Positions 23,701-32,461 of a DNA stretch of 64,000 nucleotides are shown here, piece by piece. A program made the translations under genes and the position numbers. Position 1 is the stretch's first letter. Every line of letters starts with the position of its first letter. The DNA is from Patellaria atrata CBS 101060 (lineage: Eukaryota): contig MU006090.1 of the NCBI GenBank assembly GCA_010093705.1, positions 1,976,022-2,040,021 of the forward strand, given 5' to 3'. Under the pieces are notes generated by a model. It was not told the DNA's origin, did no database searches, and saw nothing but the letters and a program-made list of their open reading frames with translations.

Positions 23701-24782
23701 GTCACAGTTCTCCTTGCAAGTCCCATCCGAATCCGAGCTATCTGAGAAATTTCCCTTATCAATATAGAGGATATTTCCAGCCTCTGCGAGCTGTGTTATC
23801 TGTTCTCCGGGTATGAGCTTTGCATGCTCAGAGCTTGCGTTTTCCGACTGTACGCTTTCACTACTTTGTATCCCAGGGGACTTCTGAGTTATTGTAAGGT
23901 TAGCTAGTGGACGTCTACTCCGAGTGTAGGAAGCATCTCAGAATTCAATGAATATGCGTATAGATGTACGTCTATGTGCTGCAGAAGGGTTACTGTCAGT
24001 GGCAAGACGAAAACAGTACTTATGCATATTCAACGGAAAAGTTGTAACCTCCCACAATGCGTTCTCCTTTCTAGTCAATGGAAATTGAACTGGTTCGGTA
24101 GAAAATGACACCCAGTTCATGATTCGCCGTTGAATGTAAGTAGAGATCACTTTCCTACTCCACGTCCTAGCTCGAAGACATGTGTCCCTTTTTACAGAAC
24201 CATGTAAAATTGTATACAATAATACTTCAACTCACTACCTCTATCTCTGCCATTCGCTGTAGCGATTGTACGGAACTCTTCAGGGGCATAGTACTCCATA
24301 TGTACTGCTTTAGGGCAAGTAGATGGGTTCGAAGCTGCCGGCTAAGTTGTTAATCTCCAATTCCAAGAGACTCTCCATTGTCTGAAGAATCAAGTCAGTT
24401 CTACTGCTGGTGATTGCCTGTACCGTTTTGACGTTTCTGTACAGTAGTGTCGAAGACCCCTTTAATGGTGAACGTACAACAGGCGAGAGATGCCCCTTGA
24501 CAGGAAGAAGGGATAAAGATTCACTGTACGAAATAACTGAACAATAGTACAAAGGGATACATCTCATGACGGAAAATGTGCTCTATTGAGCCATGGAATC
24601 ATAAATTTTGTATGCTGCAGTCAAACTATACTATCTATGTCTCGCAGTCCCAAGTACTTTTTCTTGCGCTACCCCATGTGGGAATTTTAAACTCATTTCT
24701 CCTAGATTCCAGAGCTATCAGATGCCTCTAACCCAAAGCCCTTACAAAATCGATGTATTAAAACCGAGGGAGCAGAAGAAAA

Positions 24783-26132
24783 TTAAGCTCCATCGCCTAC
24801 CATATCAACCTCCCGAGACTGTGGTTCCTCCCTCTCCGCGGACCCATCTAATTGTTCCTCGGGAGGTTCCACGCCAATATCCACTGGTTCCCGTTTCGGA
24901 CGTCTCGTAAACTCCTTCCTCCACCACGGTTCCTCCTTCAAGCCATCAAACTCCAGACTCTTCATCACCTTCGTGTCCTCTGCTAAGCCCTGCTTTACCT
25001 TTTCGCTCTCTTGGCCCAAACGATCAATATAACCTTTCCGCTCCATGCGCACGGCTTCCAACTCGAGCATGTTCTCCAGCACCAGCTCTTTAGCCTCCCA
25101 TTCCTCCCTACGCCTGCCCTCCAGCGCTATCAATTCCGCTTTCAAGTCCTCAGACTCGGTTTGCGCCCAATGCAACTCCCGCCGTAGTAACCTAAATAGC
25201 TCATCTGGCGCCAAAGCCCTCTCATCCTCCGTAAGTACCGGAATACCCGTACGGCCGTGCAGATAGTGCGCCATGAATGTGCTCCCGATAACCGGGACGC
25301 CGGGCTCGAAGTCTGAGTCGGTATGACTATTAGTAACAGCGGATAGAGGGTGTGCGTGCGATGGAGAAACGGGTGTGGACTTGTCTGAGCGGAGTTCACC
25401 CGCTTTGTTGAATACAAGTTTTAGCCGTTGCAGCTTGTTTGAGGGGTTTGAGGAGTGGTGTTTTGGGACGGGGTCGGAAGGGCGCAATGCTTCGGTTTCG
25501 TGAACGGTGCGCATATGTTTGGCGAGGGCGTCAGAGCGGGTAAAGGAGCGATCGCATTCTGTGGGGACTAGTTAACATTTTATGTCTTTTGTAGAGGCAG
25601 ATTTGGAGTTGGACGAACCTGGAAGAGTACAGTAAAATGGCTTCTCCCGCGTATGACTGCGCATATGAGCTCGTAATGCGTAACCACTAGCATGCGGTAT
25701 CCCTTTCCTCGAGCAATCGAGCCATTCACAGCTATATTTTTTCTGTTTCGAGCCAATGTGGTCCTCATGGAGATGATCGACAAGTTTATCCATATTCCCC
25801 ATATCCCCCATTTCGCAGCCGTCCCAGCGACATATCGTTATCTGCTCGTATGCCCCATCGTCTTCGCCAGGGTGTGAAGGAGAGCCCGGGAGCGAGCCAG
25901 AGGTATCGGACGAGACGTCTGAGAAGGTATCGGCCGCTGGCGGCGCCACTTCGATGATGGAGTCGCGGTGTTGGTATGATGACGCGCCTGTACGTTGCCG
26001 TTTGGAGGGTCGCGGGTTATCGACGTCCTGGTAGGGATCTGCGCTTGCGGAGCGGTCTTCGTGCTTAACCTCTGCTTCCTCGATGAAGTCTTCAGAGGAG
26101 AGGTCTGAGAGGGGTGAATCCGCGTCGTCCAT
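24783..26132 (-). CDS. C2H2 zinc-finger protein, INO80 complex subunit Iec1-like
   Basis: Exons 26132-25619 and 25558-24783. Three GLI-type fingers (CRWDGC..HLHEDH, CEWLDC..HMRSH, CTLPECDRSFTRSDALAKHMRTVH) and a C-terminal coiled coil (LFRLLRRELHWA...KELVLE). Confidence 0.85.
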
Positions 26133-26508
26133 GATGGCGATGTAAGATGTAAGCTAGTAGGTTGGAACGTAAAGCGGACGGGTTCAAGGAAAGTAATATC
26201 TGGAGCTCTGGTGTTGGCACGATAGGTTTCTTTAGTCTACCGTACTCATGCTCGTATTCGTCTTGAAAACTCCGAACGTCAACCAAGCAACAATTGTCAT
26301 TCCTGATCTTAGGATCCTGTACTATTGCATATATACTTGTAGAACGAAGGTTATACTGCTGGTATGGAATGACCGAATTGTAGCGCAGGTTCGTTCTACT
26401 GCGCTGGTACTGAAGCTATTATGACGGAATCAATCAATCGGACAGAATGCACAGGCGATTACAATCCCTCCCTCATTATGGTATGCCTTCATTGTTCTTT
26501 CAAATCTC

Positions 26509-26606
26509 ACGCGATGATGATCAAAAAAGAGAATTCTGCAATACGGATGGTCTCACTTTGTTGAAACCATATGTCGATCTCGCAAAACTACACTTGATCT
26601 GAGACT
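26509..26606 (+). ncRNA. Box C/D snoRNA with two guides (predicted 5.8S rRNA Gm75, U96-like, and U2 snRNA Am30)
   Basis: Box C ATGATGA 26514-26520. Guide GAATTCTGCAAT 26531-26542 before D' CGGA 26544-26547. Internal hairpin ATGGTCTCA/TGAAACCAT. C'-like ATGTCGA 26571-26577. Guide ACTACACTTGAT 26587-26598 before box D CTGA 26599-26602. Located within a GTATGC..ACTGAC..TTAG intron at 26481-26666. Confidence 0.85.
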
Positions 26607-27646
26607 TAATCTGAGCTACCTACTCTCTCTAGCATTTGATGTGTTCTTAACTGACGTGCGTGTTAGAATAGTTATGTAGATATACCCCATACGCGGACTA
26701 AAATCATCCACCTCAACAGGAATCCGAATACTGCCGTTATGCCATAGATTGCAGTATATCCCTTTAAGTCTTACTACCCATCATGTACATTGGCTCAACG
26801 CTTCAAGGTTGAAAAACTGGACTTGACAACAGTATATCATACAGACCTTGAGAATGAGGTATTGTCAAATGCGGCCGCGGTCCTTGAACAACATTAAGGA
26901 TAACATGGCACTTTGGCGTTTTAAGAGAACGTAACATCGAGTGTATAAGGGTAAAATTTCTTCCCAATTAGAGCACACTTGACTAGGGGAGAGAGGAATC
27001 TAACCAAAGATATAGCGAACTGGGCCACGAACTCTAGAAGAGCGCCAGGCGGAAATATCGTCTGCTTCTCAGCTCCCAGAACTTGTTCATTATGATGGCC
27101 AGTTTAGACTGGCTCTGCACTTGTTTCGAACGAAGGTGAAGAAACAAAGTTTAATCTCGTGGTTAGTCTAAGCTATCACTATATTGTTGTATTGATAAAT
27201 GTCAAGAAATAAACACTCAGGAAGTGAAAAGAGGCCAAAACTTATCTATCACGTGTGCTCCCCTGAACTCTTTGTAATAGTCTACGCCCCATGGTCACAC
27301 ATCGCTGAGGTGATTCAGTCTTCTTTATTCCAACAATTAGTTGTTGTGAATGTCTTAGAATTGACAAAGTACACGTGTAACTGAGAACAGACTACGAAGT
27401 AGATTGCAGACGTGGGTTGTACCTAAGTTTGACATTCACACTTCACGCTATCCACGGACGTTCCTTTAGCTTTAACGACACGCGGAAGATATTGTTGTTT
27501 CATAACAAACTCTCTCCACAAATATCGCATCGCTTCGAAGATCTCTTCTCTTCAATCTCAAAACAATCTTTAAATCTTCCGAGTCAAGATTCACGTAATA
27601 ATATATTCATCAGGCCCCATAACTTTGCCATAATCTCAAAATAGCT

Positions 27647-30105
27647 ATGGCGAGTTACGACACGGACCTAGAGTTCGCGATGAAACTCCAGGCCGAAGAG
27701 AATGCTGGAATTAGGCAGGATTCTGCTGAGAGTTCTTGCGCTTACGGTTCTTCCTCCAGTCAGAGAAATCTTTCCGCGGATGAAGAGCTCGCTCGCCAAC
27801 TCCAAGAGGAGTTCGACCGCATGGAGATTGATGAACCCCAAGATACAATCATGAAGTCTGATAAGAAACCTTCCGTCGCCCATGATAATGACGATGAAAT
27901 ATTTGCGATGGAGCTCCAGCAAGAGTTTGACACCCCCCTTTCTTCAAATTCCAAGGGCAAGCAGGTTGCACATCCTCACTATCTCTCAAATAAGGAGGTC
28001 GGCTCTGAACTCAGTTCCCGGGCTCTACACCATGCGTTATCCAAATATATACGTACTGGCTGTTGGCGCTGTGGCCACAAGATTCTCGCTACAATGGATG
28101 CTGTTTCACGGCTGTTTGAGACGTGGATGAGATATAATGGTAAGCCATCGTAGTCTTCTATCCGTCTCCCTTTTTCTAATCTGTCGCAGGCATAGCCAGT
28201 TCTTCAATCCTATGTAGCGGATGTGCCGGCAACACTTGTTGGGGATGCGGCCAGCAAATTGATCAGAACCTTAGTCTTCTCGACCTCGGCGCCACTAAGC
28301 TGGGGTGGTGTTGCGACGATGGCCGTCTGTTCGTAATCTGGGTATTACTATCTGGATATGATCACAAACGATCGTGTGATAGGCACCGCGACGCCCTTGC
28401 TGCTTCTGCCTCTCAGCACCCAGCTAGGATGCCGCAAGGTGCTGGGCAAGGAACTAGACCCAGTGGCACCAGCTATAGTGGTGGCGGGTCTCCCTTCCTC
28501 TTCAACCCGGGGCATCCCTATTTCGCCGCAGGTCCTCCCTCGTTTTCCACTGGTCTTTCCCCTTTCCCCGCTACTTATACTTCCTATGCTTATCCTCCTC
28601 TCCATGGTTCCCCTTTCGCCCCTATTCAAACAGGTACTGGGTACGGAGTCCGCACCTCTCAGGTTGATGCCTTCCATAACGAAAATGCTGATCGCGCTGC
28701 TAAGTCCGGTGCTGAGGAGGATAAAATCGTCTCCCAGATCCTTATTCTCCTCGCAGTCCTCTTACCAAATATCGAAAATCAAGCGCATTTCGATCAAATC
28801 CCGCCGGAAGTCCTTGTACCCATGTTAAGAAAATCATCGTTCTTGGACAGAGTTGCAGAGCTCCTCGTGAATGATGCTCTGGAGGATATAACGAGTCGCT
28901 CTAGATTGTATCGGAACGTTTTAAGTTTCGTCCAGGTCCTTGGAAACCATTACGCTACCTTGGAACCAACCATCTTCCGCGAGAGGGACGACAAGGAAAT
29001 AGGAGAGAACCTATTGAACTTCTCTTTTGCGAAAACAATTCCACCTGAGAAAAGGAGGGAGCAATCGAAGGCCATCGCTACATGCTTAAAAAATCTATGC
29101 GTCCAGAGCTCCTTATACTTGCGAACTGTTCAACAGGTCACCGGTGACGTCGATACACAGAACACCTTATCTATTTGCAAAGAGATTATTGGGCTCGCCA
29201 CACACCTACTTGTCAACTCAGAGAAAGCTCTTGGAAAGAGCAACGACACTCTCTCCTGGTCAGACTGGCAAAAGGATAATGGCTTTACCGACGCTCCCGA
29301 CAGGGCCATTCTTGAACAGCACCATTACGCCCGTGACGCCAAAAAGCTCCAGGGGGCGCATAAAAACCGTATGAGACAATTGACTCTCGAATTAACGCGT
29401 CTCAAGACAGGTCTCCCTCCGGGAATCTTCGTGCGGCATGGCGTGTCGCGTATTGACGTGATGAAAGTTCTCATAATCGGACCCAAAGACACGCCCTACG
29501 AAGGCGGTCTTTTTGAATTCGATCTCTTCTGCGATGATAAATATCCCTTTGAGCCGCCTAAAATGAACTTCAAGACCACAGGCGGCGGTCTGTTATCCTT
29601 CAACCCGAATCTTTACCCCAGCGGTAAAGTTTGTCTCTCACTCCTCGGAACATGGGCCGGGGAGCAGTGGCGTCCTGGTCAATCGACCATTCTGCAGGTC
29701 CTCGTATCTCTTCAAGCGATGGTGTTTTGCGATGAGCCGTACTGCAATGAACCCGGTAGGGATCACCTCCAGGGAACGGAAGCATCTAAGGCAGCAAACA
29801 AGAAGTACCAGGCTATGACTATCAAGCATGCTATGATCGACTGGCTTCGTGAAGGCTATGATCCTTTATGGGGTGATATTGTTCGAGAGCACTTCCTGCG
29901 CAATGGTGATCAGATTGCGCAGACGATAGGAATATGGGCGAGTGATAGGACCACCTATCCCGGAGGACAGCGGTTTACTACACATGGCACGCGTCGGGAG
30001 CGTCCTGTGAGTTCCAGTTCTCTGCTTAAATTGAAAGGTGTGTTTCAAACGGAGTTGGCTGCGTTCAAGAACAAGTTGAAGCACCTCGGCCGGGAGACCA
30101 TATGA
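27647..30105 (+). CDS. Large ubiquitin-conjugating (E2) enzyme with a BIRC6/UBE2Z-type UBC domain and N-terminal ubiquitin-binding-like motifs
   Basis: Exons 27647-28139 and 28190-30105. UBC domain IGPKDTPYEGGLFEFD...FNPNLYPSGKVCLSLLGTW with the catalytic Cys present. Three DxxxAxxLQxE helices and a Cys cluster in the N-terminal part. Confidence 0.88.
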
Positions 30106-32461
30106 GTATCCATCTTCCCCAACCTGCGTTCTCAGCAGGCCACATCTGCTCTCCAATATCTGTATGTTTATCTTGCTGTGACTCGAAATGTCAGAAAGCG
30201 CTATTCCGTGATATCTTCGATGAAGACGTCTGGTGCGCAAGACAAAATTCCTTGGACGATAAGTGCTGGCTGGGTATATGAGATAGCAATGATCACATTC
30301 TCTATTAGCGTTTGCACCCAACGATGCTTTGGACGTAGAGACCTTGCATCAGTCCACCTTGATGGACAAAACTATTGTGACTATCATGCAAGCTTCAGAA
30401 ACACCAACGACCTATCGAACACTTTCCACCCACACGTATCATAGAAACAAGCAATCGTAAACGGGATTCGACGCCTACGTCGTAGTATTTCAAGGTAATC
30501 CCATGCTTGCTGCATTGTAGTCTTACCTTACTTCCCCAAACCTCATCTCTCAACCCCAAAATTCTTGCTAAGAAAGGAATTATTTACACAATACAGAGAT
30601 CAGACTAGCCATAGAACAAGGAGTAATAGGGCATCCCGTCTGTTCTGCCACGAAGGGTCCTGTACACACCGCAGCAAATTGATCAAAGTTATGATTCTGC
30701 GTTCTCTTTTAAGCTTCTATAACCTTATACGCCACGTGCGAGCACAGAATAGTCCCAGTAATCGTAAAACTCATAACAGTCAACAAATAGCGGGAGGTAC
30801 TTAGTCTCCCATTCCGACCCAATTTTTGAAGTCCATCGGGCCTTGCAGTACTCCCAATAACCCGGATACCATCCAGATCGATGCCAGTCTATGACTGGGA
30901 TGATCTAAGGGTTCAGACCACGGGATATGAGAATATTGCTCGGATGTAAGTCAGCATGCATGAATACGATTGGAACCCCGTCCGGTAAAAAGGAGCGGTA
31001 TGGATGGGGTGATCGTTCCCCTTTATAATAGGCATAGGGGCCATAAGCAGTGGAAAACTAGTCGTGGAATTCGGACGTGCTTTTGAAGGGACATCCCGTT
31101 GGAGAACAACTGTTCGTGAAGATGGCATCTAATAGCGGCTGCCGACCCACATGCCCTACGTATTGCATTAGAGAGCAAGATATTAAGAGTTATTATACCT
31201 GACTAAGCACTCAGTCGGATATATATGCCTGTCCTCGTCCAGTCTCTTCTAGAGCAGACACTGCAATTCTACATCTCACTTTCCGTGCCCTTACCACCTA
31301 ACAAGAGTATATGGGATTATGGGTGATTCATAATGGGATTCGTCCGATATAAAAGAGAAATGGCTGACGAATGGACCTAAGTAACCGTGTTCTTACTAAT
31401 AAAAGGTTGTGAGAAATGCTGTTTGAGCGAGCGCCATGCGCTAATTATTTGACGTAGTTGTCCGTACGACGTCTTTCTCTCTTCCTCAGCCCAGGTTCTC
31501 CCAACCTGTCTCGAGTGTAATTCCTTCCATGAGTTCCATATATATAAATGTTTGTTTACCGTCTTTGCACCATCCATAAACCTCAGGAACAGGTACCCGC
31601 CCAGAGAATTGTCTATGGACAAGATAGAGACATTGACCCTCAGCTAGAGTGATTCCGGTTCCTTATTTTACTAATAGACCCAATGGCTTGAAAATCACTG
31701 GTGGCGGCCGTGTGATGAGCTGAGAACACGGCGAAGTTGACTGGCTTACCACCTGTCTCACCTCTGCTGGAGATAGCAACTCGAGCGGCGCACTGGGTCG
31801 TTTGAAAAAAGATGACTCGCAAAAGGTGACATTTTCATTACAGGGGAATGGGTGTTCAAGGTTCCCGGCCATAGGTATAGGTCCTATGCGAAAGTCATAT
31901 TAAGGTAAACGGGGGAACTGGATTAAGTGCAGGCGGCGGGATAGTGCGAGCTCATGTGACAAACTCTACCTTAGGTAACGTTTGTAACCGTGTTGAGCTA
32001 CGTATACTCTTTTGCTGCGGCTTTCTCTTTTATGGAAGGATGGTTAGCTGATGGTTTGACGCCGAGGTGTACCCGTAACAACCAGTAGTCTACAGAATCA
32101 GCTTATACGAGAGCGATCAAATGAATGTTTATGTCGGGTGGAGTTAAGTGACGGACGAGAGTAGACGAAAGGTGGTAGAGGGACAGAGGAGGAGTTCAGG
32201 TAGCCTGGAAACCGTCTACGAGTAATATAACTGCTGAAGGAATAAGACCAAACAATCGAACTAGGTGGGTAAGATACTGTGAAGCTAGAAAAGCACCGGA
32301 GAAAGTCAAGTTTAGAAATATCACATTGAGTTTTCTACCTTACTACCAAAGGATGAGCGCCAAGGTTCCCATGGATAGGAACTCTCAAACGCCAAAATAG
32401 CCAGACCACCGACAGCAGATGAGCCACCATGTCTAATCAATCGTGAAAGCTAAATCACAAC

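Follow-up and report, generated by a model that had tools for sequence, protein, structure and literature searches.

Introduction

Does the DNA shown here encode a box C/D snoRNA that guides 2'-O-methylation of both 5.8S rRNA and U2 snRNA, and is such an RNA already known? The original prediction placed a dual guide of this kind at 26509-26606 of the window (the whole 64-kb stretch of DNA analysed here). It assigned the two guides to the equivalents of human 5.8S G75 and U2 A30, and could not say whether this combination had been catalogued in fungi. It has: the pairing of a 5.8S guide with a U2 guide is on record as Rfam family RF01499 and as accession AM921920 (snoStrip family CD_35). We consider it very likely that the plus strand at 26509-26604 encodes a box C/D snoRNA orthologous to Afu-191 of Aspergillus fumigatus, and that it is a dual guide housed in an intron.

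The snoRNA and its boxes

The C / D' / C' / D architecture first described for 26509-26606 can be read directly from the window (Table 1). Both general hallmarks of a box C/D RNA are present, an RUGAUGA C box near the 5' end and a CUGA D box near the 3' end; internal D' and C' boxes are present as well, both degenerate and with a covarying hairpin between them. The guide ACTACACTTGAT directly adjoins box D, and its predicted complement in U2 lies close to the branch-point recognition sequence, on its upstream side. The other guide, GAATTCTGCAAT, had been placed immediately before D'. One base (A 26543) in fact lies between them, but the target assignment holds when D' is set at CGGA. The fifth base upstream is then C 26539 for D' and T 26594 for D.

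That two 12-mers should each land on a known site had been called very unlikely by chance, and the counts also speak against chance. With both strands scanned, exact GAATTCTGCAAT and exact ACTACACTTGAT each occur once in the 64 kb, where the chance expectation for an exact 12-mer is about 0.008 (2 x 64000 / 4^12). In shuffled sequence, allowing up to one mismatch, 0.33 and 0.31 matches are expected for the two 12-mers. The whole RNA folds no more stably than shuffled sequence (z +0.79), which is expected because it is a guide RNA. The hairpin between D' and C' is nevertheless the centroid structure of the single-sequence fold.

Table 1. Features of the snoRNA and its surroundings, in window coordinates
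Feature	Position	Strand	Basis or remark
Box C/D snoRNA, ~92-96 nt, very likely Afu-191 / CD_35 orthologue	26509..26604	+	Rfam RF01499; own model R1
C box, ATGATGA	26514..26520	+	Sequence; alignment of 21
D' guide, 12-mer GAATTCTGCAAT, complementary to 5.8S	26531..26542	+	Identical to Afu_191 consensus
Spacer base A between D' guide and D' box	26543	+	Sequence
D' box, CGGA (degenerate, C-N-G-A)	26544..26547	+	Sequence; family alignment A1
Internal D'-C' hairpin, arms 26548-26554 and 26563-26569	26548..26569	+	Covariation; centroid fold
C' box, ATGTCGA (degenerate)	26571..26577	+	Sequence; aligned with AUGUUGA of Afu_191 consensus
D guide, 12-mer ACTACACTTGAT, complementary to U2	26587..26598	+	Identical to Afu_191 consensus
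D box, CTGA	26599..26602	+	Sequence
Putative intron holding the snoRNA, 186 nt	26481..26666	+	Conserved splice signals
Putative 5' splice site, GTATGC	26481-26486	+	33 nt before box C
Putative branch site, ACTGAC	26650-26655	+	52 nt after box D
3' AG of putative intron	26665-26666	+	13 nt past branch site
Divergent C2H2 zinc-finger gene	24783..26132	-	ORFs; Pfam zf-C2H2_15; start at 26132
UQ_con (ubiquitin-conjugating) gene	27647-30105	+	ORFs and domain; ATG at 27647

Assignment to the Afu_191 family

At Rfam gathering thresholds, the whole window gives zero matches. In E-value mode there is a single credible one, RF01499 (Afu_191), which covers 26509-26604 and the full length of the model (1-93 of 93) with an E-value of 1.8e-5 when 401 bases are searched and 3e-4 when 6.5 kb are searched. 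The original prediction had named fungal C/D families and SNORD96 as the Rfam families to look for. The former thus yielded a full-length match, at 42.1 bits against a gathering cut-off of 60, and the latter yielded none at E up to 10. Three further models (MIR4208, snoZ278 and DUF805b) appeared near the site at E 2.4-7.7, far under their cut-offs, and were set aside as chance matches. No second snoRNA was found in the spacer or as part of a cluster, either by Rfam (E<=1, 24000-30500) or by a scan of the window for the same layout.

How much weight should the missed cut-off carry? The order of the boxes and both guides are identical to the Afu_191 consensus, in the same register, and the 60-bit cut-off is the curated threshold of one model, not a biological feature. 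We scanned metagenome contigs for both guides 30-60 bases apart, which gave 27 loci with 20 distinct sequences; these 20 homologues and the window make up alignment A1 (21 sequences). All 20 match Afu_191 and no other family (E<=0.01). Their scores form a gapless continuum from 89.4 to 41.3 bits, in which 7 of the 20 reach 60 bits and 13 fall below, and the window's 42.1 bits lies towards the low end of this continuum. Since these 13 homologues and the window fall below its cut-off, the Afu_191 model is too narrow, and annotation at the gathering threshold consequently misses the family outside Aspergillus-like fungi.

A covariance model of our own (R1), built from the 20 homologues with the window left out, scores 75.3 bits (E 6.6e-14) at 26509-26604 and has no other match in the 64 kb. 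Part of this score arises by construction, because the search pattern demanded both guides (27 positions); for the same reason, the conservation of the guides among the homologues proves nothing. Independent evidence that the guides are conserved comes instead from the window's identity to the Rfam consensus, which is derived from Aspergillus.

Several features beyond the search pattern are conserved among the 21 sequences. The GATG core of box C is invariant in all of them, the distance from box C to the guide is fixed, and the terminal GA of box C' is nearly invariant. Box D' reads CGGA in 12 sequences, CTGA in six, CAGA in two and CCGA in one, so that its C, G and A are invariant. In the hairpin between D' and C', 89.1% of alignment cells are paired, compared to 30-50% when the partner is slid along, and four of the seven pairs show changes on both sides. 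The base just 5' of GAATTCTGCAAT (A 26530) also lies outside the search pattern, and is an A in 21/21 sequences; it might lengthen the pairing with this lineage's 5.8S, or have some other role.

Patellaria atrata belongs to the Dothideomycetes and thereby to the Pezizomycotina, the reported range of CD_35. The case for membership in RF01499/CD_35 consists of one failed numerical cut-off alongside guides, register, genomic position and taxonomic range that all fit.

Predicted targets in 5.8S and U2

The two targets proposed for this RNA, 5.8S G75 via D' and U2 A30 via D, are also the published putative targets of Afu-191, given there as "Gm75 in 5.8S and Am32 in U2 snRNA" (PMC2377427). As stated in the original prediction, both sites are real 2'-O-methylations with separate guides in vertebrates. 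Human 5.8S Gm75, measured as 92% methylated (PMC4605285), is assigned to SNORD96A/B (PMC11550049). Human U2 Am30, the substrate for m6Am30, is assigned to scaRNA9 (PMC7960923).

On the U2 side, the D guide has the same 10 nt at the same distance from box D as the Rfam snoU2-30 consensus, and the equivalent adenosine of Neurospora crassa, U2-Am31, was mapped as methylated by primer extension for the snoRNA CD29 (PMC2780460). We regard as supported the prediction that this guide would direct methylation at the U2 A equivalent to human A30. On the 5.8S side, C 26539 faces the G of the human fragment 71-AAUUGmCAG-78 (PMC4605285) when D' is set at CGGA, and it is because of this register that the assignment holds. 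The prediction that the D' guide would direct methylation at the 5.8S G equivalent to human G75 is likewise supported.

These two predictions are not equally strong, and the same snoRNA could be read as having only one catalytic guide, that for U2. The pairing with 5.8S might then serve as, for example, a transient chaperone contact with pre-rRNA, or be idle in this lineage. Box D' (CGGA) and box C' (ATGTCGA) are indeed both non-canonical, although working double guides usually have degenerate D' and C' boxes. The literature on fungal 5.8S also leans towards this reading. The relevant passage of PMC4605285 gives Schizosaccharomyces pombe 5.8S one pseudouridine only and no 2'-O-methyl group. 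In the part of the N. crassa survey that bears on 5.8S, Am42 is the only site predicted, with no guide for the G75-equivalent, and the cognates of CD29 are described as U2-only (PMC2780460). Among the literature matches listed, none reports an experimental mapping of the 5.8S G75-equivalent in Pezizomycotina. Because S. pombe 5.8S lacks 2'-O-methylation, only Am42 was predicted for N. crassa and no mapping was found among those matches, the 5.8S arm is the weaker half of the prediction. Gm at the G75-equivalent of 5.8S is not universal in fungi.

Against an RNA that acts on U2 alone stands the D' guide itself, in which the window does not differ from the Aspergillus-derived consensus, so that the guide is the same across fungal classes. 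The C, G and A of box D' also keep a fixed distance from this guide in 21/21 sequences, the covarying hairpin brings C' and D' together, and the target G is nearly fully methylated in humans (PMC4605285). Weighing these points, we think it unlikely that the U2 guide is the only one at work, and favour an RNA with two active guides.

Genomic neighbourhood

The snoRNA sits in a 1.5-kb spacer between two protein-coding genes (Table 1). It had been described as intergenic, which is correct with respect to protein-coding genes but overlooks the splice signals that flank the RNA (see below). The upstream neighbour is a divergent C2H2 zinc-finger gene, whose first exon, over the 92% that aligns, is a 100% match to a protein deposited at NCBI for Patellaria atrata CBS 101060; one source names this gene 'INO80 complex subunit 1'.

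In 16 of the 27 homologous loci, this same C2H2 gene again precedes the snoRNA and is encoded on the other strand. These include L008, L027 and L018, along with L026 (a partial match), in which Afu_191 scores 80-89 bits. In eight of the 11 loci without it, less than 900 nt is available upstream of the snoRNA. L001, L004 and L005 lack the gene despite 2000 nt of upstream sequence, which makes it absent from 3 of the 18 loci where 900 nt or more can be inspected. Judged via the metagenomic loci that score 80-89 bits, the genomic position of the snoRNA appears to be orthologous across the family. By blastn, the snoRNA is the only part of the 1.5-kb spacer that can be aligned to any of the loci.

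One pair of loci differs next to the C2H2 gene: L005 and L010 share 99.8% identity up to a point about 800 nt upstream of the snoRNA, beyond which they have nothing in common. A rearrangement, or a break in the assembly, might account for this.

Downstream, the picture is different. ORFs of at least 45 aa past the snoRNA in the 27 loci match nothing in the window. The UQ_con gene shares the strand of the snoRNA and follows it at a distance of 1 kb; it neighbours the snoRNA in 0/27 loci. Its protein has the domain near the C-terminal part and a long N-terminal extension, and the gene contains at least one intron, at about 28154-28179. In four Aspergillus-like loci (L008, L018, L026 and L027), a stretch about 70-130 nt downstream of box D is conserved. 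Inspected by eye on the opposite strand, it resembles the last codons of a convergent gene together with its stop. If that gene is real, the second exon of the snoRNA host would overlap its 3' end in these loci; the arrangement is absent from the window.

The spacer also contains one match from an unexpected source. Positions 27130-27467 are matched with zero differences by a 338-nt contig (depth 3.5) from sequencing run X3, whose label names another organism. X3 covers no other part of the 3-kb stretch, and 27130-27467 has no second copy elsewhere in the window or among the 27 loci. The match may mean that the same fungus was sequenced thinly in a mixed sample, or that the element is shared.

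A probable intronic setting

Is the snoRNA an independent gene in the spacer, or part of a longer transcript? In the alignment, 21/21 distinct sequences have splice signals flanking the snoRNA; among 33173 anchors drawn at random from the same DNA, the figure is 5.8%. Box C is preceded by a 5' splice site at a distance of 31-61 nt; past box D, a CTRAY branch site comes at 52-74 nt, and an AG another 7-16 nt on. With both strands of the window scanned, the full layout of 5' splice site, box C, box D, branch site and AG occurs at a single place, 26481-26666. Because these signals flank the snoRNA in every sequence of the alignment, it is probably intronic rather than simply intergenic. The sequencing runs with matches here number three and take the form of DNA-like contigs with no joints; two of them span the whole stretch and may be the window's own source. 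They are uninformative on expression and splicing.

The ends of the RNA are consistent with such a setting. Within 3 nt of boxes C and D, the longest contiguous pairing in the window is 1 bp, and only 4 of the 21 family members have a terminal stem of at least 4 bp. Intron-encoded snoRNAs often have no terminal stem, and its absence here fits processing from a spliced intron.

No ORF of at least 70 aa lies within 26415-27381, and since no ORF suggests a coding host, we infer that the host would be a short, probably non-coding transcript, starting in the ~350 nt that it has in common with the C2H2 gene. The idea of a coding host was also considered on other grounds, as the first exon appears by eye to end in ATG in several homologues; this was not general, and the idea was dropped.

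The lack of a coding host would also suit an independent snoRNA gene with its own promoter, in which the splice-like motifs are incidental. Afu-191 is indeed listed as intergenic in A. fumigatus (PMC2377427), and a search for spliced reads or RNA runs of this species found none. Against this reading, the motifs recur at similar distances in 21/21 sequences, compared with 5.8% of random anchors, and the missing terminal stem may point to splicing-dependent processing. CD29 and most other C/D snoRNAs of N. crassa are also intron-encoded (PMC2780460). An independent gene thus seems rather improbable to us, and we prefer the intronic reading.

Finally, a chance resemblance or a decayed, non-functional copy might account for the low Rfam score, the missing terminal stem and a fold no stabler than shuffled sequence. 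Weak folding is what one would expect of a guide RNA, however, and with the four boxes, both guides and the hairpin intact in the family register, at a locus syntenic with the family where the snoRNA is the spacer's only conserved island, we regard this as extremely improbable.

Proposed mode of action

Box C/D RNPs have core proteins at both C/D and C'/D', and fibrillarin methylates the 2'-OH opposite the fifth guide position. Applied to this locus, the snoRNA would be released from the putative 186-nt intron of an unannotated, probably non-coding host transcript, which would start in the ~350-nt region shared with the divergent C2H2 gene. The excised RNA would be trimmed to ends set by box C and box D, and would join the core proteins, among them the methyltransferase fibrillarin/Nop1. 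The 12-nt guide of D' would then pair with 5.8S, placing the G75-equivalent opposite the fifth guide base, while the 12 nt upstream of D would pair with U2 and place the A30-equivalent in the same position. Both target riboses would thereby be 2'-O-methylated.

A more far-reaching possibility is that the 5.8S and U2 jobs are coupled, with one intron-derived RNP as the sole guide for both sites in Pezizomycotina. We are doubtful of this, and would not expect it to hold. If it did, U2 would have to meet a nucleolar RNP, and the loss of one RNA would affect the 60S subunit as well as splicing. Because the host promoter region is shared with the C2H2 gene, a neighbour conserved across fungal classes, the supply of the snoRNA would further be tied to that gene. 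In animals, the 2'-O-methyl group at U2 A30 is a prerequisite for m6Am (PMC7960923).

The dual guide itself is not new, since Afu-191 was cloned and its targets predicted in 2008, and it has since become an Rfam family and been covered by a 2018 survey. What is gained here is first a matter of annotation: a snoRNA gene that was unannotated in this genome, and a probable one-intron host transcript, likewise unannotated. The description of the family also gains in three respects, namely that the splice signals are found everywhere, that the second position of D' is free, and that the C2H2 neighbour is kept across classes. The narrowness of the Afu_191 model is a further addition, and like the features of the family it is a minor one.

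Comparison with known systems

Among the vertebrate guides, SNORD96A/B (U96) shares the 5.8S Gm75 target with the window's RNA and has no U2 guide; as the SNORD96 model does not match the window, the likeness is functional only. For the U2 guide, the closest Rfam model is snoU2-30 (RF00493), which reaches 14.3 bits (E 8.8) where 60 would be the cut-off, with the guide and box D alone aligning. SCARNA9 (mgU2-19/30) is a Cajal-body RNA. It resembles the window's RNA in guiding 2'-O-methylation of U2 A30, and differs in that it also guides Gm19 and is described, in the relevant passage of PMC7960923, without a guide for 5.8S. At U2 A30, the window's RNA would by its sequence work like snoU2-30 and SCARNA9, but it is not a member of either.

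A closer parallel is CD29 (CD_29) of N. crassa, which is intron-encoded, about 100 nt long, has its U2 guide upstream of box D and is a dual guide for 5.8S and U2 (PMC2780460). The two RNAs are set apart by their D' guides: the published target of that of CD29 is 5.8S Am42 (PMC2780460), and the predicted target of that of the window's RNA is the G75-equivalent. In the 2018 survey, CD_29 is a family in its own right, reported from Glomerellales and Neurospora (PMC5824354). Liu et al. regard the fungal U2 guide as a homologue of SCARNA9 and, in their account of the CD29 cognates of other filamentous fungi, ascribe to them a U2 guide only (PMC2780460). Afu-191, published one year before Liu et al., has the U2 guide along with a different 5.8S guide. 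With the same U2 guide and a different 5.8S site, CD_29 and CD_35 look as if a D' guide had been swapped.

The RNA most similar to that of the window is Afu-191 itself, described in A. fumigatus in 2008 from 11 cDNA clones; its cDNA measures 92 nt, and on northern blots it gives a 90-nt band (PMC2377427). The two agree in length class, in the order C-D'-C'-D, in having identical guides in the same register, and in their predicted targets. They also agree in the divergent C2H2 neighbour, judging by those loci whose Afu_191 scores are 80-89 bits. They differ in box D' (CGGA in the window, CUGA in the Afu_191 consensus), in the hairpin between D' and C', which is shorter in the window, and in the downstream neighbour. 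Afu-191 is moreover listed as intergenic, with the location given as Afu1g10270/Afu1g10280 (PMC2377427), whereas the window's RNA and all its homologues are flanked by splice signals. In the 2018 survey 'The fungal snoRNAome', AM921920 (CD_35) is a conserved double guide of the Pezizomycotina, and belongs to a small number of box C/D families in which both target regions are conserved (PMC5824354).
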